The notes: generated by a model not told the origin, from the letters alone. A DNA stretch of 51,371 nucleotides from an uncultured Candidatus Saccharibacteria bacterium (GCA_964534365.1 CAZHOI010000001.1:254171-305541); one strand, 5' to 3'; positions 18,224 to 47,822 are shown, numbered from the stretch's first letter. Program-made: numbers and translations.

Positions 18224-18316
18224 TTTACAGTTAAAAATTTTAGAAAATTTTTGCCTTATGGCATAGATTTATCTTTCACACTCTTTTGAAGATCGTTCAA
18301 AAAAGAATCTATTAGC
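18224..18316 (-). promoter_or_regulatory. Structured leader of rplK containing the GCTAATAGA...TCTATGCC motif
   Basis: Motif 18316-18260 followed by ATAAGGCA, an AT-rich hairpin and AACTGTAAA-ATG; shared with nusG, fusA and rpsG leaders. Confidence 0.75.
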
Positions 18317-18481
18317 TCATTCTGACAGAATTTATATTATTAATTTTAAATAACAAAAAAGTTAATTGTTATCGTTATTAGTTATAGGTGAACTTTATTT
18401 GTCCAGAAATAAAGTTCCTTAGAAGCTTGCACACTATACAAAAAAACTACACTTAAGTCGAGTTTGTGAATTTTGACTAAT

Positions 18482-19303
18482 TTAAGGTCGAGCAAATGAA
18501 TTGATAAAATCAAAGCTTGAAATAATATCAATAACTGTTTCTGAATTATCAGATATCATTATTGGTAAAAACTTATTAGGAAAACTGCTATTTATATCAT
18601 CAGTGCTTATTAAATAATATCCCTGACATCCCATTTCTCCACACGACTTTTTCACATAGAAGAATCGATGGTCATTGTGTGTTAGGTTTCCTTCTAAATA
18701 GCGAAACCTGGTGTCATCCTGAAACTCTGTGAATTTTCCGTCAAGACTTAATTCTGCTAATTTATATCTATTTTCTGGGTCTATATCATCCTGATCGTAA
18801 GGAAAATATTGAATCGAGCTTAAGTGACCAATCCAATCAACTAGCTGATAGAATTCAGTGCTTCTGATTATTGATTCCTCTGACAAGTTTATAGTTATCT
18901 CCAGGTCCTTCTTAAAAGGATTATTATCGGCATACATTTGATAAACCAGACCTTCTCCATTCAACTCTAACTCACTACCACTTATTTCAGACTTCCAATT
19001 TTCAGGAATTGCAAAGGTTAAAATAGAAGTTTCATAATCATAACCCTTTGTTTTTCTTATAACCTCACAAGTCTCTTCACAATTCAAAGAGTATTCGTAT
19101 GCGGAATCATCTTTATGCGACGAAGAGCTGCCAGACATAGATGTTAAATTGATATCTTTAGTTGTACTTTTAATATTTAGATTTTCTAATTTATCATTCT
19201 TGTGTTCAACCCCTAACCAAAATCCTACAAACGGCAGGGCGATAAATAACAGCATCGCCAGTGCTTTAGATAGCGGGGTGACTTTATTTAGTGACAAATT
19301 CAT
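18482..19303 (-). CDS. Membrane-anchored extracellular hypothetical protein
   Basis: KVTPLSKALAMLLFIALPFVGFWLG anchor; Cys pairs CEETC and CGEMGC. Confidence 0.8.
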   Translation of the reverse strand: MNLSLNKVTPLSKALAMLLFIALPFVGFWLGVEHKNDKLENLNIKSTTKDINLTSMSGSSSSHKDDSAYEYSLNCEETCEVIRKTKGYDYETSILTFAIPENWKSEISGSELELNGEGLVYQMYADNNPFKKDLEITINLSEESIIRSTEFYQLVDWIGHLSSIQYFPYDQDDIDPENRYKLAELSLDGKFTEFQDDTRFRYLEGNLTHNDHRFFYVKKSCGEMGCQGYYLISTDDINSSFPNKFLPIMISDNSETVIDIISSFDFINSFARP

Positions 19304-19358
19304 AAGCTAATATTACCACAGATTTTGTTTTGGTAAATAACGCGCTAAACTATTCAAT

Positions 19359-20402
19359 ATGACAAAGCTTAAAGTTGGTTTCATCCCAACAATCTCACAT
19401 CCCTTACAAAAAGGCACCAAAGGTTGGGCCAGGTATGCGTATTTTCTGGCCAAGCAGCTGGATCAAAATGATGATATCGACCTAACCATTTTCGGCACAG
19501 ACAACTCTAGCAAAAGAGAATTCCAAAATTTTGTTACCACCCTCCCCTATGAATTAACTAATCCAAATCTTGCACAGCCGCATAAAGCCTGGGAGATGCA
19601 GCAACTCTCAGAAGCTTTTAGTTCCGAGTATGATTTTGATGTTATACACAGCTGGTATACCTGGGAGCATCTACCATTTGCCAAGCTACAGATGACCTCA
19701 ACCCTGGGAACCTTTCACGGTATCGCTACCAAGGATAAACCAGTGATTGATAAATTGTTTTCAGACTTGCCAGATCATATTTGGTTTAATGCAATCTCTG
19801 ACGACAATCGATCATGGCATCCAGAACTGCCCTGGGCCGGCACCACCTATCACGGCATTGATTTGGACGATTTCAAATTTAATCCTGAACCAGATCACTA
19901 CCTATTTATGGCCGCACGAATATGTGCTGAAAAAGGAATTACCCAAGCAATTGAGATAGCTAACCAAACTAACCTTAAATTGATAATTGCGGGTCAAATT
20001 TATGATCAAGACTACTATCAAAATAAAGTTGAACCGCTGCTAAATAATCAGATTCAATACGTCGGCGAAGTTGGCTATCAGGAAGTAATCGAGAGGTTTT
20101 CAAACGCCAAAGCTTCGCTGCACCTGCCTCAACCGCCGTTTCGTGAAGCCTTTGGCATGACATTAATCGAATCAATGGCCGTTGGCACGCCAATTATTGC
20201 GATGTGCAATGGATCAATTCCGGAAATAGTCCAGGGTGGTAAGACTGGATTCGTAGTTAATTCAATTGATGAAGCAGTTGAATCAGTCGGTAAAATTAAT
20301 CAAATAAATCGCCAAGCTTGCCGCACCGGGGTAGCAGACAAATTTAGCTGGAGTAAAGTAGCCGATCGTTACGTCGAAATCTATAAAACTATCGTTAACT
20401 AA
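19359..20402 (+). CDS. Glycosyltransferase family 4
   Basis: YHGID, ARICAEKG, EAFGMTLIESMAVGTPII, GSIPEIV. Confidence 0.93.
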   Translation: MTKLKVGFIPTISHPLQKGTKGWARYAYFLAKQLDQNDDIDLTIFGTDNSSKREFQNFVTTLPYELTNPNLAQPHKAWEMQQLSEAFSSEYDFDVIHSWYTWEHLPFAKLQMTSTLGTFHGIATKDKPVIDKLFSDLPDHIWFNAISDDNRSWHPELPWAGTTYHGIDLDDFKFNPEPDHYLFMAARICAEKGITQAIEIANQTNLKLIIAGQIYDQDYYQNKVEPLLNNQIQYVGEVGYQEVIERFSNAKASLHLPQPPFREAFGMTLIESMAVGTPIIAMCNGSIPEIVQGGKTGFVVNSIDEAVESVGKINQINRQACRTGVADKFSWSKVADRYVEIYKTIVN

Positions 20403-20549
20403 GTATTGTCAAGTACTGCCTGGCATATATGCTGTAGGCTTGGCAAACGCTTGGTAGTATTATATATAATACCCTCTAATGCTTTATGGATAGAGCGCCA
20501 ATATCTTAAATTACTAATAAACAATCCGCTAATCTCTTCTTTGGTGTTT

Positions 20550-20590
20550 CATATGGGATTGACAACCATATGATAATTTAATATGATAAT
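20550..20590 (+). promoter_or_regulatory. TA promoter with operator-like inverted repeat
   Basis: CATATGG...CCATATG brackets TTGACA; GATAAT lies 5 nt before the ATG at 20596. Confidence 0.6.
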
Positions 20591-20595
20591 ATAGT

Positions 20596-20805
20596 ATGAC
20601 CACCCTATCAGTTCCAGTACCAGATAAGCTACGAAAGTTTGTCGAGGAAGAAGCCGAGCGTCGCTGCACTAATAAAGCTGACATTGTTCGCTATGCCATT
20701 AAACGATTAGCTGAAGAAGAGGCTGTCGAGCGTATTTTACGTGCGTCTCGTGAGCCTCGACTGGAGGGCGACTTAGATGAACTAGTTAAACAGTTAGATG
20801 ATTAA
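20596..20805 (+). CDS. Ribbon-helix-helix (CopG-like) antitoxin
   Basis: MTTLSVPV...NKADIVRYAI RHH pattern; overlaps the toxin start. Confidence 0.8.
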   Translation: MTTLSVPVPDKLRKFVEEEAERRCTNKADIVRYAIKRLAEEEAVERILRASREPRLEGDLDELVKQLDD

Positions 20806-21058
20806 GGTTATTTACACTAAAAAATTTATCAAGCAATATTCAAAATTACCTAAAACCCTCCAACAGGCTATAAAAGAAACAATTGTGGAGTTTACCGATA
20901 GTGGCAATCATAAAAAACTAAAGGTACATAAGCTAAAAGGTAAGCTGAAGAATTACTACAGTTTTTCCATTGATTATGCTAACCGAATAGTATTTGAATG
21001 GGATGATAAAAATACGGCTGCGCTGCTAGAAGTTGGCAATCACGATATTTATCAGTAA
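20798..21058 (+). CDS. RelE/YafQ-family toxin
   Basis: YTKKFIKQY...HKLKGKLKNYYSFSI...RIVF...VGNHDIY. Confidence 0.88.
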   Translation: MIKVIYTKKFIKQYSKLPKTLQQAIKETIVEFTDSGNHKKLKVHKLKGKLKNYYSFSIDYANRIVFEWDDKNTAALLEVGNHDIYQ

Positions 21059-21101
21059 AAAATGGCTGTGAAGACAGTCACTGTCAACTATTGCACCTAT
21101 C

Positions 21102-21743
21102 CTAATTTGTCGACATTTGTACTGTACTCAGAACCTCATCAATTCCATCATAAATTGTATGACCAAGTTCATTTGAATCCCCGCTAAAACGGATTACTAC
21201 CATTTGATTATTGTCCGGTACGGCCACTCCTTGACTATACCCTCCAACATCACCGGCCGAGAAACGTAAAATATTTGTGCCCGGTAACGTTTCAACTTCT
21301 CTGGTATCGCTAATCCATCCATTGCCAGTAAATGTATAACTACCAGAAGGGGTGCCCTGTTCAAACCCCATGACATAGTCGTATACGTAAATTTTGAGTG
21401 AGCTAGTTTTTTCTGAATTCGATTCATATACCGCAATTGGCATTGGTCGATAGTTTGGGTTTAATGGTTGCTCTACTGCTGGGATTTCATAACTAGACGG
21501 CAATTTAATTGATAGATTAGTTTCAGGGACAGTATATCTAGTATCGTTAACTAGCGCAGCGTCATTGTTATAATCCAGGTTATCATCGGCGGATATACTT
21601 GCGTTAAACTCTTCATTTGTAGACAAATCACTGGAAACCTCTGATGATCCGGGTATTAAGAAATTGCTGTCGCTGGCTAACACAACAATTCCTAATATTA
21701 TGACTATCAATGATATAGATAGTATTATTATATTTTTATTCAT
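21102..21743 (-). CDS. Membrane-anchored extracellular hypothetical protein
   Basis: N-terminal TM, Ser/Asp-rich linker, beta-rich C-terminal domain. Confidence 0.75.
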   Translation of the reverse strand: MNKNIIILSISLIVIILGIVVLASDSNFLIPGSSEVSSDLSTNEEFNASISADDNLDYNNDAALVNDTRYTVPETNLSIKLPSSYEIPAVEQPLNPNYRPMPIAVYESNSEKTSSLKIYVYDYVMGFEQGTPSGSYTFTGNGWISDTREVETLPGTNILRFSAGDVGGYSQGVAVPDNNQMVVIRFSGDSNELGHTIYDGIDEVLSTVQMSTN

Positions 21744-21805
21744 AAGCTAACTTTATCAGGTTGACGAAACACGTCAAACTAATACTTGAAAAATGACAGC
21801 TTTAT

Positions 21806-22351
21806 TTAAAGCTTTCTAAGTTGCAAAAAATCCAATTCAACTGGAGTTTCGCGTCCGAACATATTTACAAACACCTTTACCTTACCCTCTTCGCGATCGA
21901 CCTCATCCACACGACCCTCCAAATCTTTGAACGGACCATCAGTAATATGAATGTTGTCGCCTTTTTCCAAATCAATCGAGTGTTCGGTTGAATCTGATTT
22001 CATGGCATCAAAAATCTCTTGGACTTCGGCATCGGTCATGGGTACCGCGTTAACTCCTGATCCAACAAATCCGGTAACTCGTGGCGTATTGCGTACCATG
22101 TACCAAGTCTCGTCATCAACCACCATATTTACCAGCACATAACCTGGGAAAACTTTTTCTTCCTCTTCTACTCGCTTGCCCCGTTTTACCTTTACTACTT
22201 TTTTTGCCGGTACCAAAATTTCAAAAATTCGATCTTCTAGTCCAAGTGATTCTACCCGTTGATTTAGGTTGCGTTCAACGGCGCTTTCATAGCCTGCATA
22301 GGTGTGAATAGCATACCAATGTCGTTGTCCATCTGTTTGTTGTTTGGCCAT
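21806..22351 (-). CDS. nusG: Transcription termination/antitermination factor NusG
   Basis: WYAIHTYAGYE, FPGYVLV, VRNTPRVTGFVG, DGPF, MFGRETPVEL. Confidence 0.98.
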   Translation of the reverse strand: MAKQQTDGQRHWYAIHTYAGYESAVERNLNQRVESLGLEDRIFEILVPAKKVVKVKRGKRVEEEEKVFPGYVLVNMVVDDETWYMVRNTPRVTGFVGSGVNAVPMTDAEVQEIFDAMKSDSTEHSIDLEKGDNIHITDGPFKDLEGRVDEVDREEGKVKVFVNMFGRETPVELDFLQLRKL

Positions 22352-22426
22352 AATTCTTTTTCGTTGATAATTCTAGAAAATTATCTGCCTCATGGCATAG
22401 ATTTATAGATAAATCTATGCCATGAG
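22352..22426 (-). promoter_or_regulatory. nusG leader; fully palindromic variant of the motif
   Basis: CTCATGGCATAGATTTAT-AG-ATAAATCTATGCCATGAG at 22389-22426, then GGCA and the AT-rich hairpin. Confidence 0.75.
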
Positions 22427-22464
22427 CTGATAGCTTTTTATAGTAGTTATCTTATCTTAAATCT

Positions 22465-22647
22465 TTAAGTTAAGAAAGGGTCAAATAGTCTAATAAATAT
22501 TGCGTCTAGGGCCCCTAGATAACCGGCAACCAAGAGTGAAATGACAATTACAATAGCCGTATATGCAACTGCTTCGCGCCTAGTTGGCCATTGTATGTAG
22601 GATAACTCACCCTTAACACCACGTAAAAATGTAGAAATGTTTGACAT
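22465..22647 (-). CDS. secE: Preprotein translocase subunit SecE
   Basis: ELSYIQWPTR motif plus one TM; upstream of nusG. Confidence 0.93.
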   Translation of the reverse strand: MSNISTFLRGVKGELSYIQWPTRREAVAYTAIVIVISLLVAGYLGALDAIFIRLFDPFLT

Positions 22648-22716
22648 AATTTTCAGTTATTATTTGCCTTTGAACTATAACTCAAATTCGCTGCAAATTA
22701 AAGGCTGCTATGGAAA

Positions 22717-23715: not shown

Positions 23716-23717
23716 AT

Positions 23718-25142: not shown

Positions 25143-25193
25143 ATTATTATTGGTTATCGTATCGTGTTATATCATTAATCTCAATAACTAAAA

Positions 25194-26081: not shown

Positions 26082-26083
26082 AA

Positions 26084-28668: not shown

Positions 28669-30504
28669 ATGAAATTAAATAAAAATATTTCAATCACTCT
28701 ATTATTGACTTTAGTTTATATTGGTGCAGTCAGCATAACGACAGCAGAAATTAATTATGCCACTATTGACGAAACTCACGGAGATGAAGTTTTCATCCAG
28801 TATCGTAGTCCAGATTTAAATAAAATCGATGATGGCAAGCGATTATACGCATGTAACATTGATAATCAAAAGTGCCGCAAAATCAGCGACGAAGATACTC
28901 GAATAATTGATGAAGATAAATTTATTAAAACAATTGCGGCCGTATATCCAGACACGGCAATTACCTCGTCCCCTAATGGGAAAATCAATGCAGCAATTAT
29001 ACCCACGCCAGACAATCAGTCAGCGGTTTTATTTCTAAGAGATGGTGGCACCTCCAACCTATATAAGTTGGAAAGATTAAATCCCAATAATATTGAAAAG
29101 TTAATACTTGGTAATAATAAAAAACTTACCGTCTTTACAAATAATCAAATTATGACAATCGGCTCTGGAGGTATTATTGTACGCTTTGACCTACCACCCG
29201 CCAGTGACTATCGATCGTATCAAACCAGCCTTAACGGAAGGGCTGCAGCTGTATTTAGCCCGAATTTAGAAAAACTCTTCGTCACCGATTCTGAAAACAA
29301 CCAACTTCATACTATTCCAGTAACTAATAGCTCACTTCCAGAGTTTTCTCCAAACGGTCAGTACATTATGTATATAAGAAGAGGTAATTTTGGTGAAATA
29401 AACGTGGCCCAACTTACTAATGCTGGCTTAGAAATACTTAATTCAAGTGTCAATGAAGCTGGGGTTTTAGCTGATTACCTTTGGTCAGGAAATAAACTGT
29501 ATTATGCCGGTAATACTATGAGAGACCCCTATGAATGGAATTTGTATTCTTACGATCCAGTAACTAATGGGGTTAAAGAGATTGATGAAGATTTCTCACG
29601 TAATGATTGGATGACAAGGATAGGCAATAAGCTTGCTTACCTAAAGGTTGACGAAGAAAATACAGATTTAGTAGTCATGGATGAGACTGGCAAACAAACT
29701 ATAGTTAGGCCACAAGAAATTAATATTTCGAATCGTCAGTCAATTGATCGCGAGGAAGTTGTAATTGAAAATCAATATTATGGAGTAGATCTAAAACAAC
29801 AATCGGATTCAATTCCTGAAACTTATATCATTTGGCTCCACGGAGGTCCGCAACGACAAACATCACTGAATTATCACCCTTTCTTCTCTTACGCGATTTA
29901 TGATCAAATACTTGAAAAATTAGTGGCAGAGAAAGGTTTAGGGGTGCTAAAGTTTGATTACCACGGATCATATGGCTATGGTCAACAATTTATTCAAGAA
30001 TTATATGGAAATATAGGCGTAAAGGATATTGATAGTGTAGACTTGGCAATTGATTATCTAAAAGATCAAGGGGTAGAGAACATCTTTATTATGGGAAACT
30101 CTCATGGTGGTTACCTAGCTATGAAGTCACTTTCAACATTAAATGAATCAATTGATGGTGCAATTTCGATTAATGGAGTTGACGACTGGATCAAGTTAAT
30201 CACCAGAACAGGTTTTCCTAGCACTTATTTTAACGGTGAACCTAATCTAGAGAATATAAGTCTATACCTTCAAGCAACCACATATTCTGATGTAGATAAA
30301 GTAGATGATCCAATTTTACTAATACATGGTGCAAATGACGAAACAGTGCCGGTGAGTTCATCTATTAGCTTTAATAACCATCTACAAAAACACGGCAAGC
30401 AATCTAAATTGGTAATAATTGAAAACGAAGGTCATATCTTTACCTTTAGAAATAGCCTCGATAGAATTTATAAGGAAGTTCAAAAGTTTGTTAATAGTAA
30501 CTAA
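28669..30504 (+). CDS. Secreted S9 (prolyl oligopeptidase-type) peptidase
   Basis: Signal peptide, propeller-like region, LHGGP, GNSHGG, DETVP, EGH. Confidence 0.9.
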   Translation: MKLNKNISITLLLTLVYIGAVSITTAEINYATIDETHGDEVFIQYRSPDLNKIDDGKRLYACNIDNQKCRKISDEDTRIIDEDKFIKTIAAVYPDTAITSSPNGKINAAIIPTPDNQSAVLFLRDGGTSNLYKLERLNPNNIEKLILGNNKKLTVFTNNQIMTIGSGGIIVRFDLPPASDYRSYQTSLNGRAAAVFSPNLEKLFVTDSENNQLHTIPVTNSSLPEFSPNGQYIMYIRRGNFGEINVAQLTNAGLEILNSSVNEAGVLADYLWSGNKLYYAGNTMRDPYEWNLYSYDPVTNGVKEIDEDFSRNDWMTRIGNKLAYLKVDEENTDLVVMDETGKQTIVRPQEINISNRQSIDREEVVIENQYYGVDLKQQSDSIPETYIIWLHGGPQRQTSLNYHPFFSYAIYDQILEKLVAEKGLGVLKFDYHGSYGYGQQFIQELYGNIGVKDIDSVDLAIDYLKDQGVENIFIMGNSHGGYLAMKSLSTLNESIDGAISINGVDDWIKLITRTGFPSTYFNGEPNLENISLYLQATTYSDVDKVDDPILLIHGANDETVPVSSSISFNNHLQKHGKQSKLVIIENEGHIFTFRNSLDRIYKEVQKFVNSN

Positions 30505-33309: not shown

Positions 33310-33496
33310 ATACTAACTAATGTAGAAAAAGCTATAAGACATTGCCACGTCTTTTAGCTAAATTGACCTTTAATTCAGCGATAAACCGCTATAAATGGCG
33401 GTTTATATCACTTTTGGCTGATCCACATAGGGGTAGCAATTACTTGCCCGAATTAGCGCTTATTAAAATAAAATTATAAAAAAATCAGCTTTTAAA

Positions 33497-33606
33497 GTTG
33501 GCACCTACCTACTCTCCCGCGTGACGCAGTACCATCGGCTCTGGAGGGCTTAACTGCCGGGTTCGGAATGGGACCGGGTGTTTCCCCTCTGACAAAGTAC
33601 CAACTT
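33497..33606 (-). rRNA. rrf: 5S rRNA
   Basis: Reverse strand has ACACCCGGTCCCATTCCGAACCCGGCAGTTAAG, GCCGATGGTACT and GAGAGTAGGT; flanked by a perfect 19-bp stem (33483-33501/33600-33618). Ends approximate. Confidence 0.95.
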
Positions 33607-33746
33607 TAAAAGCTGATTAATATTAAAGGCCCATCCAACCTCTGAGTGTGAACCAGTTCAAGGCACAAGGCCTGGTCACCAGTTCACACTTAGAAGCTAG
33701 ATCTAGTTACGTTCGACAATTCCGCAAGTTGGGATTATCTCACTAG

Positions 33747-33802
33747 GGCATAGATTTATCTTTTTAACGCTTTTAACAATTGTGTAAAAGAAATCTATTA
33801 GC
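33747..33802 (-). repeat. GCTAATAGA...TCTATGCC motif copy in the 23S-5S spacer
   Basis: GGCATAGATTTATCTTT...AAAGAAATCTATTAGC on +; long-loop form like the rplK copy. Confidence 0.8.
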
Positions 33803-34005
33803 CAAGCCTCGAAAATCATTATGAATACGAATGTGAATTATCAAATCCCTTGGTTTGACTTTCGTCTCGCTAGGGATCAATAGCAATAGCATTTGAGAAC
33901 CAAATCCTTTGATTCGATACTTACGTATCTTACTCGGGACAAGTAAATAATTATAGTAGGTACTCTACTTTCGCTTTAAAATTTTAGAAAATTTATAAAG
34001 CTTAT

Positions 34006-34032
34006 GGCATAGATTTTTAAAAATCTATTAGC
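34006..34032 (-). repeat. Motif copy just 3' of the 23S
   Basis: GGCATAGATTTTTAAAAATCTATTAGC, adjacent to the same AAAATTTTAGAAAATTT hairpin seen in rplK and rpsG leaders. Confidence 0.85.
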
Positions 34033-34311
34033 ATTTACTTTCGAGTAAATACTTGTTTTGCCGTAGAAAGTAGATTGACCTGATGCGCACTTTTCCTACA
34101 AAGAAGCATGTGCGTCGACGAATTAGTACGCCACGGCTCAATACATTACTGTACTTCCACCTAGCGCCTATCAACCTGATCATCTCTCAGGGGTCTCAAA
34201 CGATATCTAATCTTGGAGGCGGCTTCGGACTTAGATGCTTTCAGCCCTTATCCGGTCCGAACATAGCTACTCGGCGGTGCCACTGGCGTGACAGCCGATA
34301 GACCAGAGGTT

Positions 34312-34343
<32 letters not shown>

Positions 34344-34382
34344 CTCTCCTCAAATATCAACGCCTACAGTAGATCAAGACCA

Positions 34383-34419
<37 letters not shown>

Positions 34420-34420
34420 T

Positions 34421-34454
<34 letters not shown>

Positions 34455-34530
34455 TCTCCAGCCCCAGGATGAGATGAGCCGACATCGAGGTGCCGAACAC
34501 CGCCGTCGCTCTGGACGCTTAGGCGGTACC

Positions 34531-34561
<31 letters not shown>

Positions 34562-35051
34562 GTGATCTCGAGCACCATCTGAAGGTTACTCTCGGTTCAC
34601 TAAGCTCTGCTTTCGCACCTGCTTGCGCTGTCACGCTCGCAGTCAAGCCGACTTATGCCCTTACACTATCGTCACGGTTTCCATCCGCAACTAGTCGACC
34701 TTTAGGCTCCTCCGTTACTCTTTAGGAGGAGAGCGCCCCACTCAAACTACCCAGCACAGTATGTCCCGATACGTTTTTGCCGTATAGGTTAGAATCTACA
34801 GAAGACAGGGGGAGTATCTCACTGGCGGCTCCAGTTCAGCTAGCGCTGAACCTTCAAAGCCTCCTCCCTATGCTGCACAAGCCCTCCATAGACCCAAACT
34901 GAACCTGTAGTAAAGCTCCCGGGGTCTTTTCGTCCCACTGCAGGTAACCGGCATCTTCACCGGTATAGCATTTTCACCGAGCTCTTCCTCGAGACAGTTC
35001 TCCAGTCGTTACGCCATTCGTGCACGTCGGAACTTACCCGACAAGGAATTA

Positions 35052-35090
<39 letters not shown>

Positions 35091-35113
35091 CGGGGCTTAT
35101 ATAGCCCAGCCCA

Positions 35114-35227
35114 ACAACACGCGAAGCACGTGTTGACAAACAACCAACTACAAACAACTTACGACAATTGGTTTTTGTCGTAAGTGGTAAGTTGTTAGTG
35201 GTAAGTAAACACATGTTCCATGTGTTG
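35114..35227 (-). other. 23S insertion, about helix 68
   Basis: Non-conserved ~114 nt with terminal AACAC/GTGTT hairpins and 7-nt-periodic arms. Confidence 0.8.
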
Positions 35228-35351
35228 CAGGACCGTCCATACTTAACCTTCCGGCATTGGTCAGGCGTCACCCCCTATACAGCCTCTTTCGAGTTCGCAG
35301 GGAGCTGTGTTTTTGGTAAACAGTCGCCAGAGAATCTTTAGCTGCGGCCCA

Positions 35352-35473
35352 GGTATCACGCTAGGCGTGATACACGGATAACTAATGACTCGGACTTATA
35401 ACCGGCACCATTTTGCTTGGGTTATAGGTTATTGTTATCAGTTACTCGTTAGTATCACACGCAGTGTGATACC
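35352..35473 (-). other. 23S insertion, about helix 63
   Basis: GTATCAC..GTGATAC hairpins at both ends; shares 24 identical nt with the helix-45 insertion. Confidence 0.8.
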
Positions 35474-36005
35474 CAGGCAGACCTTATCCCGAAGTTACGG
35501 TCGCTTTTTTGCCGAGTTCCTTGAGGAAGAATCACTCGTTCGCCTTGGTCTACTCGACCTGAACACCTGTGTTGGTTTGCGGTACGGACAATACAAATTT
35601 ATGCTTAGAAGTTTTTCTCGGCTAATTGCTCACTAGTTTTAGATCACCTAAAAGGCTCACGTCATGACATGCGTTGCGGTATATGGTATCCGGATTTGCC
35701 TAAATACCCCACTTCAGCTGCCAACCCCAATCCAATAAGGGGCACTAGCTACTAATCAGCGTCACTCCATCGCAACTTGCATTGGCCAGGGAATATTAAC
35801 CCTGTGTCCATCGCCTCCCCCTTTAGGGATCGGCTTAGGCCCGGCTAACCCGACTCTGATTAACATCGAATCGGAAACCTGGTTCTTTCGGCGTGTGGGA
35901 ATCTCACCCACATTGCGGTTACTCGTGCCAACATTCTCTCTTGTATCCGCTCCACCCCCGCTTACGCGTTAGGCTTCGGCGCTGAATACAATGCTCTCCT
36001 ACCAC

Positions 36006-36145
36006 TAGCGCACCTCACTCAAGTTCGGTTCGCTAACTAATAACTTATAACTTGAACTTATAACCGGCACCATTTTGCTATTTGGTTTTATTATTAGTCA
36101 TTGTTATCAGTTATTAGTTGCATCGAACCTCAGTGAGATGCACTA
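36006..36145 (-). other. 23S insertion, about helix 45
   Basis: Closing stem GCACCTCACT/AGTGAGATGC; TAAC-periodic arms. Confidence 0.8.
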
Positions 36146-36764
36146 ATCCGCAGTTTCGGTACTACACTTAGCCCCGATCATCTTCGGCGCGAAGTCCCTG
36201 AATCAGTGAGCTGTTACGCTATCTTTAACAGGTGGCTGCTTCTAAGCCAACTGCCTGATTGTCTATGGAACTTCACCTCCTTCATTGCACTTAGTGTAGA
36301 TTTAGGGACCTTAACTAGCGATCTGGGCTGTTTCCCTTTTGACCTGCGGAGCTTAGCCCCCGCGGTCTGACTCCCATGTTCTTGACCTCTCGGTATTCGG
36401 AGTTTGATTGGTCTAACGAGCTTGCGCCCTATTTAGACCATCCAGTGCTCTACCCCCGGAGGGAACACATGAGGCTAGTCCTAAAACTATTTCGGAGAGA
36501 ACCAGCTATTACCAGGCTCGATTAGCTTTTCACTGCTATCCACAGCTCATCCCCTCGCTTTGAACGACGAGTGGGTGCGGGCCTCCAGCGACATCTCTGT
36601 CGCCTTCACCCTGGCCATGGATAGATCGCCTGGTTTCGGGTCCGATACTTACGACGTTAATTTTCGCGCTTTCACACTTGCTTTCGCTCTGGCTCCAGAC
36701 CTTTTAGCCTTTAGCCCGCCATAAATATCGACTCGTTGGCTCATTCTTCAATAGGCACGCCGTC

Positions 36765-36872
36765 GAGGACATCACGCTACGCGCGATTGTCAAATAACAC
36801 ATATCATGGAGCAAATTGTTCCATGTTTTATGATTTGTGCTTTATGGCTATCACCCACAGGGTGATGCCCTC
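36765..36872 (-). other. 23S insertion, about helix 25
   Basis: ATCAC/GTGAT ends; 55/60 identity with the 37177-37291 insertion. Confidence 0.8.
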
Positions 36873-36923
36873 TCCGACTCCTTGTAGACACACGGTTTCA
36901 GGTCTATTTCACTCCCTTTGCCA

Positions 36924-36965
<42 letters not shown>

Positions 36966-37176
36966 ATCTCTAAAGATATTTAGCCTTACCAGTCAGTACT
37001 GGCAGATTCCTCCCGGCTATTCATGTCCGGAAGTACTCAGGAACAGAGACTATAGAGTTCTCGTAATTTCGCATACAGGACTATCACCCTCTATGGTTAA
37101 CCTTTCCAGGTTATTTTGCTATCACGAGAATTTGTAACTCTACCTACGTGAACGCAGAGTCTCTGCCCTACAACCC

Positions 37177-37291
37177 CGACGCATCACGCGAAGCATGATG
37201 CTCATGTAGCACATAACACGTATCTTGGAGCAAATTGTTCCATGTTTTATGATTTATGCTTCATGGCGATCACATTCCATGTGATGCGCCG
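37177..37291 (-). other. 23S insertion, about helix 16-18 region
   Basis: GCATCAC/GTGATGC ends with terminal hairpins. Confidence 0.8.
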
Positions 37292-37633
37292 GTTTGGGCT
37301 CTTCCCGTTTCGCTCGCCGCTACTCGGGGAATCGATTTTTCTTTCTATTCCTCTTGGTACTGAGATGTTTCACTTCCCAAGGTCAGCTTCCCGATGACTT
37401 ATGCATCGGAATTACGAGGTTTTACCTCGTAGGGTTTCCCCATTCGGAAATCCCGGGGTAAGTTTGTTAGGCAACTAACCCGGGCTTATCGCAGCCGTAC
37501 CACGTCCTTCATCGCTCTTTAGAGTCAAGGCATCCGCCGTGTGCCCTTAGTCGCAGACACTTCCTTATAGGAAAGCTGCGCACCAAGTCTTTTCTACACT
37601 CAACGATCCCGCTAGTCGGGATTGTTTCGTTAT

Positions 37634-37661
37634 GGCATAGAAATCAGTGATTTCTATTAGC
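37634..37661 (-). repeat. Motif copy in the pre-23S leader
   Basis: GGCATAGAAATCAGTGATTTCTATTAGC on +. Confidence 0.85.
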
Positions 37662-37774
37662 GCACATAGACCAGTTGAGTGTAAAAATTTGATCGCTCCG
37701 CCTAGGGCGGAACTTGTAACACTACAATTATTTTCTACTTCCGCTTGGCAAAATTTAATTTTGCCGGCGCTTAT

Positions 37775-37803
37775 GGCATAGATTCTTTGGAGAATCTATT
37801 AGC
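37775..37803 (-). repeat. Motif copy in the pre-23S leader
   Basis: GGCATAGATTCTTTGGAGAATCTATTAGC on +. Confidence 0.85.
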
Positions 37804-38189: not shown

Positions 38190-38218
38190 AATATAACCGA
38201 TGCCAATTTATAAGTCAA
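38190..38218 (-). promoter_or_regulatory. Likely sigma70 promoter of the 23S-5S transcript
   Basis: TTGACT-17 nt-TATATT on the minus strand; boxA-like GATCATTGACAATTGAATA at about 38068-38049. Confidence 0.7.
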
Positions 38219-41801: not shown

Positions 41802-41818
41802 CAATAATCAATCATATT

Positions 41819-42073: not shown

Positions 42074-42102
42074 GTCTTAATATCTTTACTCGCAATAAAT
42101 TT

Positions 42103-42131
42103 GCTAATAGATTTTGTAAAAAATCTATGCC
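42103..42131 (+). repeat. Motif copy on the + strand, 12 nt before ATG 42144
   Basis: GCTAATAGATTTTGTAAAAAATCTATGCC. Confidence 0.85.
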
Positions 42132-42143
42132 ATTCTATAAATA

Positions 42144-42401
42144 ATGCCAAATTCTAAAAAAGATACTACTAAAAGAACTCGTGATCGAACCCTGGTTTAC
42201 TGGGCGTTTGGATTAATTCTGGCTGCCCTAGCTTTATTAATCTTGGGTAGATTAATGACCGACAGTCTTGAAAATGAAACTACCACCCAAGAGATTAGAC
42301 TGGATTCAGAACCGAATGGATTAGAAATTACCACTGATGGACTTGAAAATGCAACTGGTAGCACTCTTCCTGATCTATCAACTGAAATTAACGTTGAATA
42401 A
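42144..42401 (+). CDS. Small bitopic membrane protein (FtsL-like topology)
   Basis: Basic N terminus, one TM, acidic Thr-rich tail. Confidence 0.7.
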   Translation: MPNSKKDTTKRTRDRTLVYWAFGLILAALALLILGRLMTDSLENETTTQEIRLDSEPNGLEITTDGLENATGSTLPDLSTEINVE

Positions 42402-42433
42402 GATAGTTTCTAATTAATACTCAGTGAAATAGA

Positions 42434-42733
42434 CTAAAAATCACCGTTTTTTAAATTTAGGACATTGATTAAATAAGCTTTTGCAGCCAACCAGCTTTCA
42501 TCAAGTTTATCTTTTTCTTCGGCAATAGTTATCGCTACATAAATCCGTTCCAAAAAAATTCCAAGGTTTCTACGAGCTTTCACGTGAACTTGGTTTTGAT
42601 AAAATTCTTCTAAACTACCGTAAGTTTCTTGGAACCTAGAATATGAACTAGAGAAAAATCCGTTTTCGAATCTTCTTATCGCTTCGGTGACGTAAATATC
42701 CTCGCCAGGAGTTAAATGTGGACTTTCAAACAT
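42434..42733 (-). CDS. Hypothetical protein
   Basis: ATG at 42733 lies 6 nt after TGT-TACAAT; 99 aa. Confidence 0.6.
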   Translation of the reverse strand: MFESPHLTPGEDIYVTEAIRRFENGFFSSSYSRFQETYGSLEEFYQNQVHVKARRNLGIFLERIYVAITIAEEKDKLDESWLAAKAYLINVLNLKNGDF

Positions 42734-42775
42734 ATGTTGATTGTAACAAAAAAACCCCATCATTGGGGTAATGTC

Positions 42776-44953
42776 CTAGCTACGGCTTTTGATGATTTCG
42801 CCTGCCACATTATCCGGCACTACCGCATAGTGGTCGAATTCCATCGTCATATTTCCCCGCCCCGATGTCATTGACCGCAGTTCAGTCGTATAACCAAACA
42901 TCTCGGACAGTGGCACCTTGGCATTAATTGCGGTATTTAACCCACGCTGTTCGCTGGCTTCTACCAATCCCCGCTTTGATGCCAAGTTTCCGGTAATATC
43001 ACCAATATATTCGTCTGGCACGACCACCTCGACTTTCATCATTGGCTCTAATAGTGCTGGCTTTGCTCGCTTGACACCCTGTTGAAATGCTTGGGAGCCA
43101 GCAATTTTAAAGGCGACCTCGGACGAGTCTACGTCATGGTAAGAACCATCAAACAGATCAACGGCAATATTCACCATTTTATAACCAGCCAATACTCCTC
43201 GATCCATAGCTTCTAGAATTCCTTTTTTAACTGCTGGAATAAACTCTTGAGGAATCACGCCGCCTTTGATGCTATTGGTAAATTCAAACACATCATCGCG
43301 ATCCACATTTTTAGGCACTTCTTCGTCTGCAACCGCCGCTGGATCGAATGGAGTAATCCGGATTTTTACGTGACCGTACTGACCCCTACCACCAGATTGC
43401 TTTATGTATTTCTCTTCCGCTTCGGCATCAGCTAAAATGGTTTCACGATAAGCAACTTGAGGCTTGCCAACATTTGCATCCACGCTAAATTCGCGCTTCA
43501 TTCGATCTACAATAATATCCAAGTGCAACTCGCCCATTCCCGAGATAATAGTTTCGTTAGTTTCTTCGTCAGAGGACACGCGGAAAGTCGGATCTTCGTC
43601 GGATAGTTTAGCCAGGGCAATTCCCATCTTTTCCTGATCAGCTTTCGTCTTTGGTTCGATTCGAAGCGAAATTACCGGTTGTCGGAATTTGATCTCTTCT
43701 AATATTACCGGATTATCTTCGTCACATAACGTATGGCCGATTTTGGCATCTTTCATCCCTACCATAGCCGCAATTTCACCCGCAAATACTTCTTTAACTT
43801 CCTCGCGTTTATCAGCCTGTAGTCGCACAATTCTACCGACTCGCTCTTTGGATCCAGTAGAGGCATTATAGACATATGAACCGGCCTCAACTTTTCCGGA
43901 ATAAACGCGGAAAAATGACAGCTGACCAACAAAAGGATCGGTTTGAAGTTTAAATACTAGGGCCGAAAACGGCTCGGCTGGATCAGAGGTTCTGGTAACT
44001 TCTTCTTCAGTTTCGGGATTTTTACCTTTGGCAGGTGGTAAATCTAGTGGTGATGGCAGGTAATCAACTACCGCATCCAGTACTAATTGAACCCCCTTAT
44101 TTTTTAGAGCAGAACCACAGTAAACTGGGAAAATAGCGTTGTTGATAACCGCTTTGCGCATTAGTCTTTTGAATTCTGCTAGATCAGGCTCATTGCCCTC
44201 CAAATATGCATTCATTGCCTCGTCATCTTGTTCTACTACTTTTTCCAACAGCTCGGCCCGATATTTTTCTGCTTGTGCGCGTAGCTCATCAGGAATCTCG
44301 GCCTGGCGTACCTCCATCCCCATATCACCTTCAAAATAATAGGCTTTCATCTCGACTAGGTTAATCACACCTTCATGCGCCTCTTCTTCACCAATAGGGA
44401 TTTGGGCGCGAATCGCATTTGGAGACAATCGATCTATAATCGACTGAAATGATCGATCGAATGATGCGCCGGTACGGTCCAGTTTATTGATAAAACACAA
44501 CCTTGGCACTTGTGCCTCCTCGGCGTAGCGCCAGTTGGTTTCTGATTGTGGCTCTACCCCAGCTACCGCATCAAATACCACTACCCCACCATCCAAAACA
44601 CGCATTGAACGCTGTACTTCGGATGTAAAGTCAATATGTCCCGGCGTGTCAATGATGTTAAACCGATGCCTAGCATCAGAATCACCATCAGTTGCCTGGG
44701 CAACCCCTTCTTCGTTTAACCTAGCGTGGGTCGGAGTCCAAAAACAGGTAATAGCCGCAGCCGTAATGGTAATGCCACGCTCGCGTTCTTGTTCCATCCA
44801 GTCGGTGGTTGTTTCACCATCGTGAACCTCACCAATTTTATGTGACATTCCGGTGTAAAACAGAATTCGTTCCGAAGTAGTGGTTTTACCTGCATCTACG
44901 TGGGCCACGATTCCAAAGTTGCGTACTTTTTCTAGAGGGTAATCTTTACTCAT
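42776..44953 (-). CDS. fusA: Elongation factor G
   Basis: AHVDAGKTT, ERERGITI, DTPGHIDF, NKLD, GMGELHL, PQVAYRE, KQSGGRGQYGH, GSYHDVDSS. Confidence 0.99.
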   Translation of the reverse strand: MSKDYPLEKVRNFGIVAHVDAGKTTTSERILFYTGMSHKIGEVHDGETTTDWMEQERERGITITAAAITCFWTPTHARLNEEGVAQATDGDSDARHRFNIIDTPGHIDFTSEVQRSMRVLDGGVVVFDAVAGVEPQSETNWRYAEEAQVPRLCFINKLDRTGASFDRSFQSIIDRLSPNAIRAQIPIGEEEAHEGVINLVEMKAYYFEGDMGMEVRQAEIPDELRAQAEKYRAELLEKVVEQDDEAMNAYLEGNEPDLAEFKRLMRKAVINNAIFPVYCGSALKNKGVQLVLDAVVDYLPSPLDLPPAKGKNPETEEEVTRTSDPAEPFSALVFKLQTDPFVGQLSFFRVYSGKVEAGSYVYNASTGSKERVGRIVRLQADKREEVKEVFAGEIAAMVGMKDAKIGHTLCDEDNPVILEEIKFRQPVISLRIEPKTKADQEKMGIALAKLSDEDPTFRVSSDEETNETIISGMGELHLDIIVDRMKREFSVDANVGKPQVAYRETILADAEAEEKYIKQSGGRGQYGHVKIRITPFDPAAVADEEVPKNVDRDDVFEFTNSIKGGVIPQEFIPAVKKGILEAMDRGVLAGYKMVNIAVDLFDGSYHDVDSSEVAFKIAGSQAFQQGVKRAKPALLEPMMKVEVVVPDEYIGDITGNLASKRGLVEASEQRGLNTAINAKVPLSEMFGYTTELRSMTSGRGNMTMEFDHYAVVPDNVAGEIIKSRS

Positions 44954-45023
44954 GTCTTTTTTCGTTAAATAATTTTATAAAAATTATTTGCCTCATGGCA
45001 TAGAAATTGTAATTTCTATTAGC
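44954..45023 (-). promoter_or_regulatory. fusA leader with the motif
   Basis: GCTAATAGAAATTACAATTTCTATGCC-ATGAGGCA-AT-rich hairpin-AACGAAAAAAGAC-ATG. Confidence 0.75.
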
Positions 45024-45192
45024 ATGTGCATTTAATCTTTTGTTTAATAATTTTAATAAATAGGTGTTATTGACGCGCTCGCTGTTATTAATAATAAAGG
45101 AGGCTAGTGTCAGGCCTGCACTATACCCGAAAAGGCTTGATTTTTGAAGTTTTATAGTTCACTATTTGACTGAACCACTAGCCAAGACACAC

Positions 45193-45605
45193 ATGTTGTC
45201 AAATTATCTCTCGCTGGAAATGTTCCTTGAGGCAAAAGCACGAGCATTATTAAGACTAGAAATAGACCAGAATTTTAATTTACGGGACCTACAATCTAAA
45301 GGTAGATATGGCCAAACTCTATATAGCCTTTTGTATTATATAAAACATCTATCGACTCCGGATTTTATGCAATTACAGAGTTTTCAATGGCATTTCTCGA
45401 CCTTAGAAAATTGGTAAGAGAATACCTTAAATTTAGACCCCATCCTTGCCCGCGAAGCTCTTCAAAGGCTTATTCAAGACTTGAAAAAAAAGGGCTGTTT
45501 AGGAAGAATGTCGAGCTTGTTGAACGCCCCGACACTGTGTTCGGGGCGTATTTTATTCTTTTAAATATTTACTCTAAATCCTGTATACTAATAACCAATG
45601 GGTAG
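45193..45605 (+). pseudogene. Two overlapping short ORFs (45193-45417 and 45387-45605), possibly one frameshifted orphan
   Basis: 31-nt overlap in different frames; a terminator-like CGCCCCGA/TCGGGGCG hairpin lies inside the second ORF. Confidence 0.3.
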
Positions 45606-45921
45606 ATTCGTTTACAATCAGCAGCAAAATAAAACCACTGTAGATGAAAATTTATTGCGGCAATCTGATGCCGACAAAGATATAGTGCAATATCACTCAC
45701 AAACCGAACCTTATGTGAGTAATAATTCTGGATTTAAACCAGGCAATCAAATTCAAAAATCAAATAATGTCAGCCACCAGAAACTATCATACTTAAAGAG
45801 CGAGATTGATTTCATGGTTGATGGATTTATGCGTGAATTAATTGATTTCGATTCATTTGGAAATCTGGACCCTCAAATTCAATCCGAAATCGCTAACCGC
45901 TACCCACAATTTTTCAATTAG
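45598..45921 (+). CDS. Hypothetical protein
   Basis: 107 aa; TG-TATACT 8 nt before ATG. Confidence 0.6.
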   Translation: MGRFVYNQQQNKTTVDENLLRQSDADKDIVQYHSQTEPYVSNNSGFKPGNQIQKSNNVSHQKLSYLKSEIDFMVDGFMRELIDFDSFGNLDPQIQSEIANRYPQFFN

Positions 45922-46014
45922 TTTTCAGCTAGAATATAACTGAATTTTGATTTAATAAATAAGAGCCTTGGGCTGGCAATTCCCTAGGCTCTATTAGTAA
46001 TTCTTCATGATGGT

Positions 46015-46329
46015 TTAGGTTAGCGGATCTTTTTCGATTATTTGCGAGACCTCGTAGGCGCTTAGCATGACATCATTGTCGCAATATTGCGCCTGATACG
46101 CTGTCGGATTATTTAACCATATCCTTAGATCGGCCGGATGCAAACCCAAATAGTGACAGCAACCATCGAAGAATTCTTGGGTAGGCTGTTTTTGCATGCA
46201 TTGTTTTCTGACGTAACCAAAACTATTTCCAAAACTCCTCTCAAATGCGGCAAAATCCATGCCACCTGATTCGGCGGCGCGAATTAGGTATAACCAAAAT
46301 CTACCAAGGTGCGTGATTTTCTTCATCAT
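46015..46329 (-). CDS. Orphan, possibly XRE-like HTH
   Basis: FAAFERSFGNSFGYVRK...QPTQEFF...YLGL resembles the XRE fold. Confidence 0.55.
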   Translation of the reverse strand: MMKKITHLGRFWLYLIRAAESGGMDFAAFERSFGNSFGYVRKQCMQKQPTQEFFDGCCHYLGLHPADLRIWLNNPTAYQAQYCDNDVMLSAYEVSQIIEKDPLT

Positions 46330-46420
46330 TTCAAAGAATGTATTAACCCCAACGATTGTAAGGTTAAAGGATGAAGGAGTTCCGAGTATTTATTATAGCA
46401 ATAAACTGGCTGGCTGGGGG

Positions 46421-46987
46421 TTAATTTGAAATTGAGTGCAATACAATTTTAAGCTGCGTAATCAACCTAGAAATCGAACTGCGCAATCTGGCAATTTTGT
46501 CAGAATCACCTTCAATCTCAGCGCGATCAGCAACTGAATGGTCAAGGTAAAATTGTCCAATTTCAGAATCGGTTGAGTAAAACTGACCATAACTAAATAC
46601 ATTGGTTTGGTAGTCGCGAACAACTTCAAATACCCCTTCTTCCCCTAAGCCACCAGTACTGTCGCATTGATCAGCAGTAGTGTCATCTTCATTTGGATCA
46701 GGCAACCGATGTTTGACCCAGAATTTTGCTGGGACTCTACCTTTGAGCACTTTTTTAGTCTCGATCTGATGTAATTCATAATTATCAATCACTTTTTCAG
46801 CTATGACTACTCCATGTAAAACTTGAGTATTAAAGTATTCACCCAAATAATCATCGTGCATTATTTCGTGAGCTCTTTCAGTAGTTTTGTCCCCGCAGTC
46901 CAATGCAAAGGTGGTCATTGGAGTTAAAATGGTAATTGCTAATCCCAGACTTAATAATATTGTTAAATAATTTATTTTTAATGTCAT
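46421..46987 (-). CDS. Secreted protein, possibly TIMP/NTR-like fold
   Basis: Signal peptide then ALDC; VLHGVVI...KKVLKG...C pattern. Confidence 0.65.
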   Translation of the reverse strand: MTLKINYLTILLSLGLAITILTPMTTFALDCGDKTTERAHEIMHDDYLGEYFNTQVLHGVVIAEKVIDNYELHQIETKKVLKGRVPAKFWVKHRLPDPNEDDTTADQCDSTGGLGEEGVFEVVRDYQTNVFSYGQFYSTDSEIGQFYLDHSVADRAEIEGDSDKIARLRSSISRLITQLKIVLHSISN

Positions 46988-47166
46988 AATTATCTAGACG
47001 AATGAAAGCCAAGTTTATTACAGGTGACCATAAGTTTACCAAATAAATTAATCTATAAGCCGGAAGGCTTAGTATCTTGATGAAGTAAGAGGAATTGAAA
47101 ATCTGCGTCGGATACATACCATGTAAATGTTTAACTGTGGGTGTATTTAGAATGAATATTTTGATT

Positions 47167-47247
47167 AGTTCAAGGCATAAAGAAAAACTAACCCGAGGCG
47201 TATACGTAATACGATGAGGGTCAGTTTTTCTGCAGTAACGCAGAAAT
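47167..47247. repeat. Fourth copy of the ~80-bp REP/MITE-like element, downstream of rpsG
   Basis: GTTCAAGGCATAAAGAAAAACTAACCCGAGGCGTATACGTAATACGATGAGGGTCAGTTTTTCTGCAGTAACGCAGAA closely matches 17469-17547. Confidence 0.85.
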
Positions 47248-47267
47248 CATTAAAATAGGCTTCTAAA

Positions 47268-47750
47268 TTACCAGGCGAAGTGGGCAAAGGCCTTGTTTGC
47301 CTCAGCCATACGATGAGTTTCTTCTTTCTTTTTAACCGCTGAACCTTCGTTGTTTGAAGCGGCTAAAATCTCGGCGGCTAGTACCTTTGAAAAGGCTTTG
47401 CCTTGAGATTTTCTAGTTTTTCGCGCGGCATCAGTAATCCAACGGAAAGCCAGCGATAATCGGCGATTTTGTTTGACCTCGCGAGGTACTTGGTAGTTGG
47501 CACCACCGACTCGGCGCGACCGGACTTCCATCATTGGTCCAACGTTTTTAATCGCTTCATTAAAGACTTGTAGGGGTTCATCATTTTTGGATTCTTTGGC
47601 TACAATGTCTAGTGCATCATAAACAATTGATCGGGCCAGGTTCTTTTTCCCGTCGAGCATGATGTAATTGATAAATCGGGCCAGGTTTTCTGATCCATAT
47701 TTAGGATCTGGTTTAATCGGGTCTTTCTTTTTAAGTGGTCGTCGTGGCAT
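47268..47750 (-). CDS. rpsG: 30S ribosomal protein S7
   Basis: MPRR start at 47750, [32 protein letters not shown]. Confidence 0.98.
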
Positions 47751-47822
47751 AACTTTTTTTACAGTTAGAAATTTTAGAAAATTTCTGCCTTGTGGCATAG
47801 ATTCTTTGCAGAATCTATTAGC
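47751..47822 (-). promoter_or_regulatory. rpsG leader with the motif
   Basis: GCTAATAGATTCTGCAAAGAATCTATGCC-ACAAGGCA-GAAATTTTCTAAAATTTC-TAACTGTAAA; nearly the same as the rplK leader. Confidence 0.78.

Follow-up and report, generated by a model that had tools for sequence, protein, structure and literature searches.

A single family of structured repeats marks the borders of ribosomal RNA (rRNA), transfer RNA (tRNA) and ribosomal-protein genes in an uncultured Candidatus Saccharibacteria bacterium, whose 756-kb genome, here called G000, is assembled in 15 contigs and estimated to be 97% complete. Nine copies lie in the stretch of 51,371 nucleotides analysed in this work (G000:C1:254171-305541, referred to below as the window). 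The core of each unit is a fixed-sequence 30-base hairpin, HP1 (GCUAAUAGA..UCUAUGCC), usually followed by a second hairpin, HP2. The copies form a repeat family with a covarying structure, they are concentrated at genes of the translation apparatus and they are restricted to one lineage. One hairpin family common to these three kinds of gene border has no entry in Rfam, and we regard it as new; the kinds of element to which it is related, intergenic hairpin repeats and RNase III-type processing signals, are known ones. We infer that the units act at the level of RNA, where some factor would recognize and possibly cleave them.

Both halves of HP1 are strongly over-represented in the window. The 5' half, TCTATGCC, is found 10 times as compared with 1.56 expected, and the 3' half, GCTAATAGA, nine times as compared with 0.55 expected, and in neither case did any of 100 shuffles reach the observed count. 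A preliminary description of this DNA had listed nine copies; the half-sites pair at all nine, and the paired copies in the window are exactly these. The remaining 5' half, at 30361-30369(-), has no partner and lies inside a coding frame, and we take it as a chance occurrence. Across G000 there are 52 3' halves and 50 5' halves, 35 exact full copies of HP1 (15 forward, 20 reverse; none for a reversed control pattern) and, with a covariance model built from 29 units, 47 matches at E <= 0.01. When the whole window was compared with Rfam 15, only the 23S and 5S rRNAs passed the gathering thresholds. A permissive search with the units (E up to 10) gave a top score of 19 bits, against gathering thresholds of 40-127 bits, and the stretches downstream of units that are free of open reading frames (ORFs) yielded only tRNAs. 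The motif thus matches no Rfam family, in agreement with the earlier impression that it resembled no recognized leader. In the accessible parts of the literature on Patescibacteria and Saccharibacteria promoters, hairpins and leaderless genes, and on Candidate Phyla Radiation RAYTs, we found no description of it. A loose-pattern scan of a genome collection gave at least 117 single chance matches in unrelated taxa and was uninformative. A complete HP1 copy immediately to the left of the window (G000:C1:253929-253957(-)), two of whose pairs are G.U, is contained in an ORF of 1180 aa, either by chance or through in-frame insertion.

The hairpin of the preliminary description is real, but the unit is larger than was described there, as it comprises, over some 70-95 nt, HP1, a linker of 3-4 nt, HP2 and an A-rich single-stranded tail. 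In units of the mRNA type the tail ends at a start codon, and in those of the stable-RNA type it ends at a tRNA end. The ten mRNA-type units precede rplK, nusG, fusA, rpsG, prfA, rpsR, rplP, rplB, groEL and an NYN-domain gene, the last six names being our reading of the translations. In this type, AUGAGGCA follows HP1 directly and is able to form a GCC-AUGA-GGC mini-hairpin, HP2 is AU-rich with the loop UUUUCUAAAAU, and a tail of the form AAC(G/UGU)AAAAAAG.. runs up to the AUG, 36-46 nt after HP1; the exception is the NYN-domain gene, with 72 nt and a disrupted HP2. The TAAAAT in the AU-rich HP2 loop is invariant in about 16 G000 units and in the metagenome contigs L205, L210, L220 and L222. 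A conserved upstream mini-ORF starting at AUGAGG was considered and dropped, because the AUA and ACA variants have no AUG. In the stable-RNA type, AUAG follows HP1, HP2 consists of two outer pairs around a GA/GA internal loop, and the tail, GCGUAAAYAG, runs up to the tRNA end, 40-43 nt after HP1 in 5' leaders. Copies consisting of HP1 only stand 6-13 nt before the start codons of rplX, rplR, fpg and a small membrane-protein ORF. HP1 itself has 17 conserved bases, and the spacing between its conserved halves ranges from 27 to 58 nt; in four copies (rplK, 5S, tsf and C10) the loop is extended by a conserved insertion of about 28 nt.

The stems vary in sequence and stay paired, as had been proposed from the window. 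In the 42 short copies of HP1 from the whole genome, 98.6% of cells are paired and 44 cells at five pairs carry double changes; none of 500 shuffles matches the observed covariation score, a figure that, like the corresponding one for HP2, is not a probability, because the aligned copies are mostly paralogues within one genome. Pairing falls to about 40% when the partner is slid by one column. The GA-loop class of HP2 (10 units, one of them from a metagenome relative, with one row misaligned by a column) is 85.6% paired, shows double changes at eight of nine pairs, and again has no match to its covariation score among 500 shuffles. Mismatches in the nine scored stem pairs of HP1 are G.U or non-pairs, with no A.C, and there are six G.U cells over all 11 HP1 pairs. 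Four of five units fold better than shuffled sequence (z -3.5 to -5.1), whereas the comparison of HP2 fold energies between strands is noisy and serves qualitatively only. The UA bulge, ascribed earlier to eight copies, is still predicted there and is absent from the nusG copy; however, the two closing G-C pairs that form it are invariant and never covary, so the bulge is a prediction only, and in the minimum-free-energy fold of mRNA-type copies the terminal GCC is instead engaged in the GCC-AUGA-GGC hairpin. Two further structural ideas were set aside. Mimicry of rRNA was dropped since no HP1-like hairpin was found in mature 16S or 23S, and long-range pairing between 5' sense and 3' inverted units would, on our reading, involve only 9+8 bp, which is below the local hairpins.

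Placement was assessed on a gene map made with a crude ORF script, aragorn for tRNAs and Rfam for 16S; most gene names are our reading of the translations, Pfam having been used to check six proteins only. Among 50 candidates 47 are intergenic, and the nusG palindrome and a degenerate copy before tRNA-Trp bring the intergenic set to 49. By our reading, 37 of these adjoin tRNA, rRNA, ribosomal-protein or translation-factor genes, so that the concentration at translation genes and pre-rRNA seen in the window extends, tRNAs included, to the genome. The uniform sense orientation reported for the nine window copies is confirmed there but does not extend to the genome: 31 of the 49 are sense to the downstream feature, and 18 are convergent with or antisense to a neighbour, 14 of the 18 at translation-apparatus genes. 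The preliminary description had named random orientation beside functionally random genes as the mark of an ordinary repetitive extragenic palindrome (REP) or miniature inverted-repeat transposable element (MITE); both orientations are indeed found, but the neighbours are not functionally random.

The inverted copies are themselves regularly placed, their tails always facing the gene end. Seven are directly next to tRNA 3' ends, which lie 38-45 nt from HP1; the six tRNAs concerned are those for Phe, Thr (with two units in tandem), Met, His, Leu and Arg. Two follow the 3' end of 16S and two more are antisense within the 16S leader, where one precursor carries three HP1 copies in both orientations. 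Three lie just past the 3' ends of tuf, rplD and rplW, the tail of the tuf copy overlapping the stop codon, and the other four stand after ftsE, after a thioredoxin-reductase-like gene, or against another structured repeat. None of the six tRNAs with an inverted unit has a hairpin-plus-T-run terminator within 100 nt, whereas many other tRNAs have one. The units do not have the form of intrinsic terminators, HP1 and HP2 being A+U-rich with no T run after either orientation; ordinary intrinsic terminators are present elsewhere in the genome. A rule tying orientation to the replication strand was considered and did not hold, since copies within 1-2 kb of one another point in opposite directions, and independent small-RNA genes were dropped, a -10 hexamer abutting HP1 in only 3 of 47 units and inverted copies having no fixed promoter.

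Several features of these surroundings deserve mention. Classical operons are broken up or punctuated in G000, with units in the secE-nusG and groES-groEL gaps and at six sites within the S10-spc cluster (G000:C2:82-94 kb). An HP1 copy divergent from rpsB (G000:C1:167468-167800) points into sequence conserved in contig L213 (..GAUAAUUGUCUUGUG..); the 305 nt around it contain no ORF and gave no Rfam match, and may represent an unannotated RNA gene. A second structured repeat of about 150 nt, with the core ..GAAAGACGGAA.., hairpins and a T-arm/acceptor-like end, occurs downstream of tRNAs and tmRNA (G000:C1:65564, C1:141273, C2:51431, C2:116775, C4:12063 and C5:45184) and at about 9-12 sites in a relative of another genus (G003:C2), with no Rfam match in the stretches searched. 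Some HP1 units abut its end, and at tRNA-His and tRNA-Arg(tcg) the inverted unit sits between the tRNA and another same-strand structured repeat.

The family is restricted to one lineage. Neither the exact pattern nor the covariance model detects it in any of 40 relatives (five of the same family in other genera and 35 of the same order), and a phylum-wide distribution across Patescibacteria, which the preliminary description had left as a possibility, is not what is seen. Upstream of fusA the unit is absent in all four relatives examined. Where G000 has the unit at the NYN locus, the orthologous regions of relatives have ordinary terminators made of a hairpin and a T run, and in at least one relative (G001) TATAAT stands just before the start codon. 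The NYN-domain gene (G000:C4:16346-16891) was also considered as the cognate nuclease and was dropped as specific evidence, because it is conserved in 39 of 41 genomes searched and does not co-occur with the motif. One metagenome scan gave 23 loci, in which the covariance model has 21 matches; 16 loci are true hairpins by inspection. They come from organisms 74-95% identical to G000 in conserved genes. By orthology calls based on short metagenome contigs, orthologous units stand before tRNA-Glu(ctc) (L205 and G000) and before rplX (L211, L208 and G000). Their upper stems differ and are all paired (UUUG/CAAA, AAAU/AUUU and UUUU/AAAA), and the HP2 arms differ too, which we read as compensatory change at orthologous sites in related organisms.

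Within the window, the mRNA-type unit before rplK (18224..18316(-); model match C1:272391-272486) has the long variant of HP1 (18260-18316), the mini-hairpin in the form GCC-AUAA-GGC, an AU-rich HP2 and an A-rich tail up to the ATG (18223). A -10-like TAAAAT at 18343..18348(-), 26 nt upstream of this HP1, is the putative promoter of the rplK leader. The unit before fusA (44954..45023(-); fold z -3.46), with HP1 at 44997-45023 and the ATG (44953) 43 nt after it, likewise has a TAAAAT at 45050..45055(-), 26 nt upstream of HP1, as a candidate fusA promoter. Before rpsG the unit occupies 47751..47822(-) (z -5.13), with HP1 at 47794-47822 and the ATG 42 nt after it. The unit between secE and nusG (22352..22421(-)) has as HP1 (22394-22421) a perfect palindrome without the bulge, which therefore reads on both strands and is matched by the model on both. 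The one plus-strand copy, HP1 only (42103..42131(+)), stands 12 nt before the small membrane-protein ORF (42144-42401), which belongs to no Pfam family. Pfam identifies L11, NusG, EF-G, S7 and SecE in the window. The rpsG and fusA genes are about 2.3 kb apart, with small ORFs on both strands between them (42776-47834). Directly downstream of rplK, where rplA would be expected, about 790 nt (17000-17789) have no ORF of >= 60 aa on either strand and no Rfam match at E <= 0.1.

Four further units surround the 23S rRNA (34104-37560(-)) and 5S rRNA (33496-33604(-)) identified by Rfam. The 23S-5S spacer holds a stable-RNA-type unit (33703..33802(-)) with a long-variant HP1 (33747-33802), the GA/GA HP2 and a tail ..GUAACUAG, as well as a unit 71 nt after the 23S 3' end (33965..34032(-)), with HP1 at 34006-34032, an AU-rich HP2 and the tail GCGAAAGUAG. 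In the pre-23S leader, the proximal copy (37594..37661(-); HP1 37634-37661) is of the stable-RNA type, and its tail stops 4 nt before the leader arm GACUUGGUGCGCA, which can be paired with the 23S trailer, a pairing that is our reading of the sequences. The distal copy occupies 37735..37803(-) (HP1 37775-37803). About 390 nt upstream of it lies a promoter-like TTGACT-17 nt-TATATT (38190..38218(-)), a consensus match only; if this site is used, both leader units would lie within the pre-23S transcript. The 23S gene spans 3457 nt as compared with the 2925 positions of the model, and therefore appears to carry about 530 nt of insertions.

The expression system of the host bears on how such units might work. 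TAnAAT hexamers cluster ahead of start codons, beginning 12-15 nt before them in 49 of 341 upstream regions; no Shine-Dalgarno peak is seen, and the 16S gene (G000:C2:6451-8143(-)) has the 3' end ..GGAGUAUUUCAAUU, without the CCUCC anti-Shine-Dalgarno. Most genes therefore look leaderless, and the unit-bearing genes look like a leadered exception. The genome -10 consensus, from 55 aligned promoters, is TGnTAnAAT, with G at -14 in 37 of the 55 and no -35 signal. A TAAAAT stands 25-28 nt upstream of HP1 in five of the ten mRNA-type units. The only promoter-like sites before the 23S and 16S genes lie far up, that of 23S some 390 nt above the distal unit of its leader and that of 16S some 520 nt ahead of the 5' end of the gene, which would place the rRNA-leader units inside transcripts. 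RNase III is encoded (PF14622 match at G000:C1:54756-55142, E 1.1e-39), whereas searches of the genome for RNase E/G, for the N-domain of RNase Y and for the RNA-binding domain of Rho gave no match.

We favour the view that the unit is an RNA element concerned with boundaries, processing or stability, perhaps as a target of RNase III, and consider the chances of this view to be about even. As RNA elements bordering the most highly expressed genes, the units would act on transcripts, HP1 being bound or cut by one double-strand-specific factor, for which the encoded RNase III is the simplest candidate. In this way they would punctuate polycistronic or long-leader transcripts, and the protective terminal hairpins left behind would set the levels of translation-apparatus RNAs. 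With its palindromic stem and self-complementary TA bulge, HP1 gives nearly the same hairpin when inverted, so that a protein specific for binding or cutting double strands could work with either orientation; past the 3' ends of tRNAs, 16S, tuf, rplD and rplW, the inverted unit would take the place held elsewhere by an intrinsic terminator. An RNA-level reading fits best because of the selected pairing, the compensation at orthologous sites, the GA/GA loop, which is meaningful only in a folded single strand, the excess of G.U, the location in leaders and spacers, and the replacement of terminators. A more specific form of this idea, which we regard as unlikely, is that the units are punctuation marks of an otherwise leaderless expression system, such that one hairpin-specific nuclease, either RNase III or another partner reading HP1 in either orientation, cuts at the unit end and frees tRNA and rRNA ends and start-codon-proximal ribosomal-protein mRNAs from long transcripts.

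A number of observations weigh against action as a processed RNA. The argument for RNA draws on structure and strand asymmetry, both of which single-stranded DNA would satisfy as well. The 11 pairs of HP1 are short for a classical RNase III substrate, and this enzyme is expected throughout the order; as none of the 40 relatives has the motif, RNase III alone does not explain a fixed 17-nt sequence, and no lineage-specific partner protein was found. Next to tRNAs, inverted units retain the GA/GA loop and the G.U pairs on their own strand (on the tRNA strand these become U.C and A.C), a pattern that agrees with a function, or with recent copying, on the antisense strand of the tRNA, and no consistent promoter was found for that strand. 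The AU-rich HP2 loop UUUUCUAAAAU, conserved across organisms, equals the genome -10 consensus, for which a pure hairpin model gives no reason. Finally, sites turn over between related organisms: L222 has the unit after 23S in the opposite orientation, with its tail abutting the trailer arm of the 23S processing stem, a unit before rpsS in L223 is absent in G000, and that of L225 is convergent to a different tRNA.

Some of these points suit a selfish palindrome of the REP/REPIN or MITE kind, spread by a single-strand DNA transposase or by gene conversion and tolerated or co-opted near highly transcribed genes, which we consider a rather improbable explanation. HP1 is an imperfect palindrome with an asymmetric bulge, present in about 47 copies that are almost only intergenic, in both orientations, confined to one lineage, and turning over in site and orientation between related organisms; back-to-back inverted pairs occur (C2 92248/92279 and L223), and the genome has other families of small palindromes. 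The covariance model and genome scan foreseen in the preliminary description have given a mixed answer, with covariation and 47 matches on the one hand and these REP-like traits on the other. Single-strand DNA transposases, too, recognize hairpins that are strand-specific and contain G.T pairs and bulges, and five Y1_Tnp (PF01797) proteins are encoded, four RAYT-like and one IS200-like by our reading (G000:C1:235281-235919, C2:34920-35495, C1:43694-44359, C5:5747-6349 and C3:17843-18286). However, HP1 flanks none of these five genes, each of which has its own, different palindrome. (For some of these palindromes about 3-10 scattered copies exist, and one copy lies near window 1292-1312.) Nor would a selfish repeat be expected to show a placement that is not indifferent to gene function, a fixed spacing to start codons and tRNA ends with a downstream module that matches the gene type, or compensatory change at orthologous sites, and its orientation should not be expected to lack a replication-strand rule.

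Two further explanations are a promoter and a DNA-level site. In a transcription-initiation module, ATGCCA of the HP1 3' half would be a -35 element and the TAAAAT of the HP2 loop, 17 bp on, a -10 element, with transcripts starting about 8-11 nt before the start codon or tRNA. The fit of the invariant TAAAAT to the consensus TAnAAT, its spacing of 15-17 bp from ATGCCA, the presence of the unit where relatives have a terminator plus promoter and the association with strongly expressed genes all speak for such a module. We nevertheless hold it to be quite unlikely, as the GC-rich HP2 class (16S, 23S, 5S and both tRNA-Ala) has no -10-like hexamer at that place, and the promoters of this genome mostly carry TGn and show no -35 signal, whereas the unit has TTC instead of TGn. 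A promoter starting inside HP2 would transcribe one arm only and would not need the arms to be kept complementary and to covary, which counts for an RNA element. In addition, transcription from 18 of 49 units would run antisense into tRNA, 16S and tuf, several units stand inside classical operons (secE/nusG, groES/groEL and S10-spc), and the 56-nt long HP1 variants leave the module undisturbed, so that the HP1 5' half would have no promoter role. The other explanation, a DNA-level palindrome or cruciform site for an architectural, topological or polar road-block protein (gyrase-type, or an insulator like mTERF or TTF-I), would have the sites bracket highly transcribed genes and point inward from both ends. 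Units do occur in both orientations and are directed at genes from both sides, with rplD and 16S each enclosed by copies that face inward; inverted copies stand in for terminators at tRNA 3' ends, and 17 conserved bases imply sequence-specific recognition. Yet the half-site spacing of 27-58 nt argues against a dimer on duplex DNA, for which the compensatory changes and the excess of G.U over A.C would be unexpected and the GA/GA loop would have no meaning, and we find this explanation very unlikely indeed.

Comparison with known systems leads to similar considerations. The REP/REPIN elements of E. coli and Pseudomonas, which go with RAYTs, are short, imperfect, polar palindromes that are each confined to one species or genus and number tens to hundreds of copies between genes; they are transcribed within mRNAs and are able to stabilize 3' ends. 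The units share with them the short imperfect palindrome, the many intergenic copies, both orientations and the single lineage, but lack an HP1-flanked RAYT, are fused to a second hairpin and a tail ending at a start codon or tRNA, and stand in 37 of 49 cases at translation-apparatus genes, many on the 5' side. RNase III sites are known in the phage T7 intercistronic regions (R1.1), in pre-rRNA stems, and in the secE-nusG, rplJL-rpoBC and rpsO-pnp transcripts. There, too, similar hairpins, interrupted by an internal loop or a bulge, separate cistrons and flank rRNAs, one nuclease links rRNA and translation-gene transcripts, and the cut leaves a protective terminal hairpin; HP1, in contrast, is shorter, with 11 pairs, and far more uniform in sequence, and relatives lack the motif. 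In mitochondria, tRNA punctuation of polycistronic transcripts yields leaderless mRNAs. The present host is likewise leaderless, without an anti-Shine-Dalgarno, and has a structured element abutting the start codon or mature RNA end, but the unit is not a tRNA and the cut would have to be 3' of the element.

Antitermination RNAs (rrn boxB-boxA-boxC and HK022 put) also have two adjacent leader stem-loops, with copies in the rRNA leader and spacer. However, no boxA-like U-rich tail was seen in a comparison by eye with the boxA consensus, the tails being GCGUAAAYAG or AACGAAAAAAG, and 18 of 49 units are inverted, at 3' ends where antitermination makes no sense. The units also stand at positions known for the operon-specific ribosomal-protein leaders of Rfam (L1/rplK, S7/str, L10 and others), here before rplK and rpsG and, in contig L210, before rplJ, but those leaders are protein-specific rRNA mimics, whereas here one motif without an Rfam match is shared.

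If the units act on RNA, they would offer a testable answer to the question of how an ultra-small bacterium expresses internal and highly expressed genes and matures its stable RNAs without Shine-Dalgarno pairing and with no match for RNase E/G, RNase Y or Rho in its genome, and a single cis-element would serve rRNA, tRNA and ribosomal-protein transcripts in place of the many operon-specific leaders of textbook bacteria. Should the narrower idea of punctuation by one nuclease be true, the units would be a bacterial counterpart of mitochondrial tRNA punctuation, and one regulator would tie together the output of the whole translation apparatus. If they are selfish repeats, their near-exclusive survival at translation-gene borders would make them an exceptionally clear example of domesticated repeats or of targeted insertion. 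The 47-copy family, together with the metagenome relatives, provides a ready alignment for a new RNA family.

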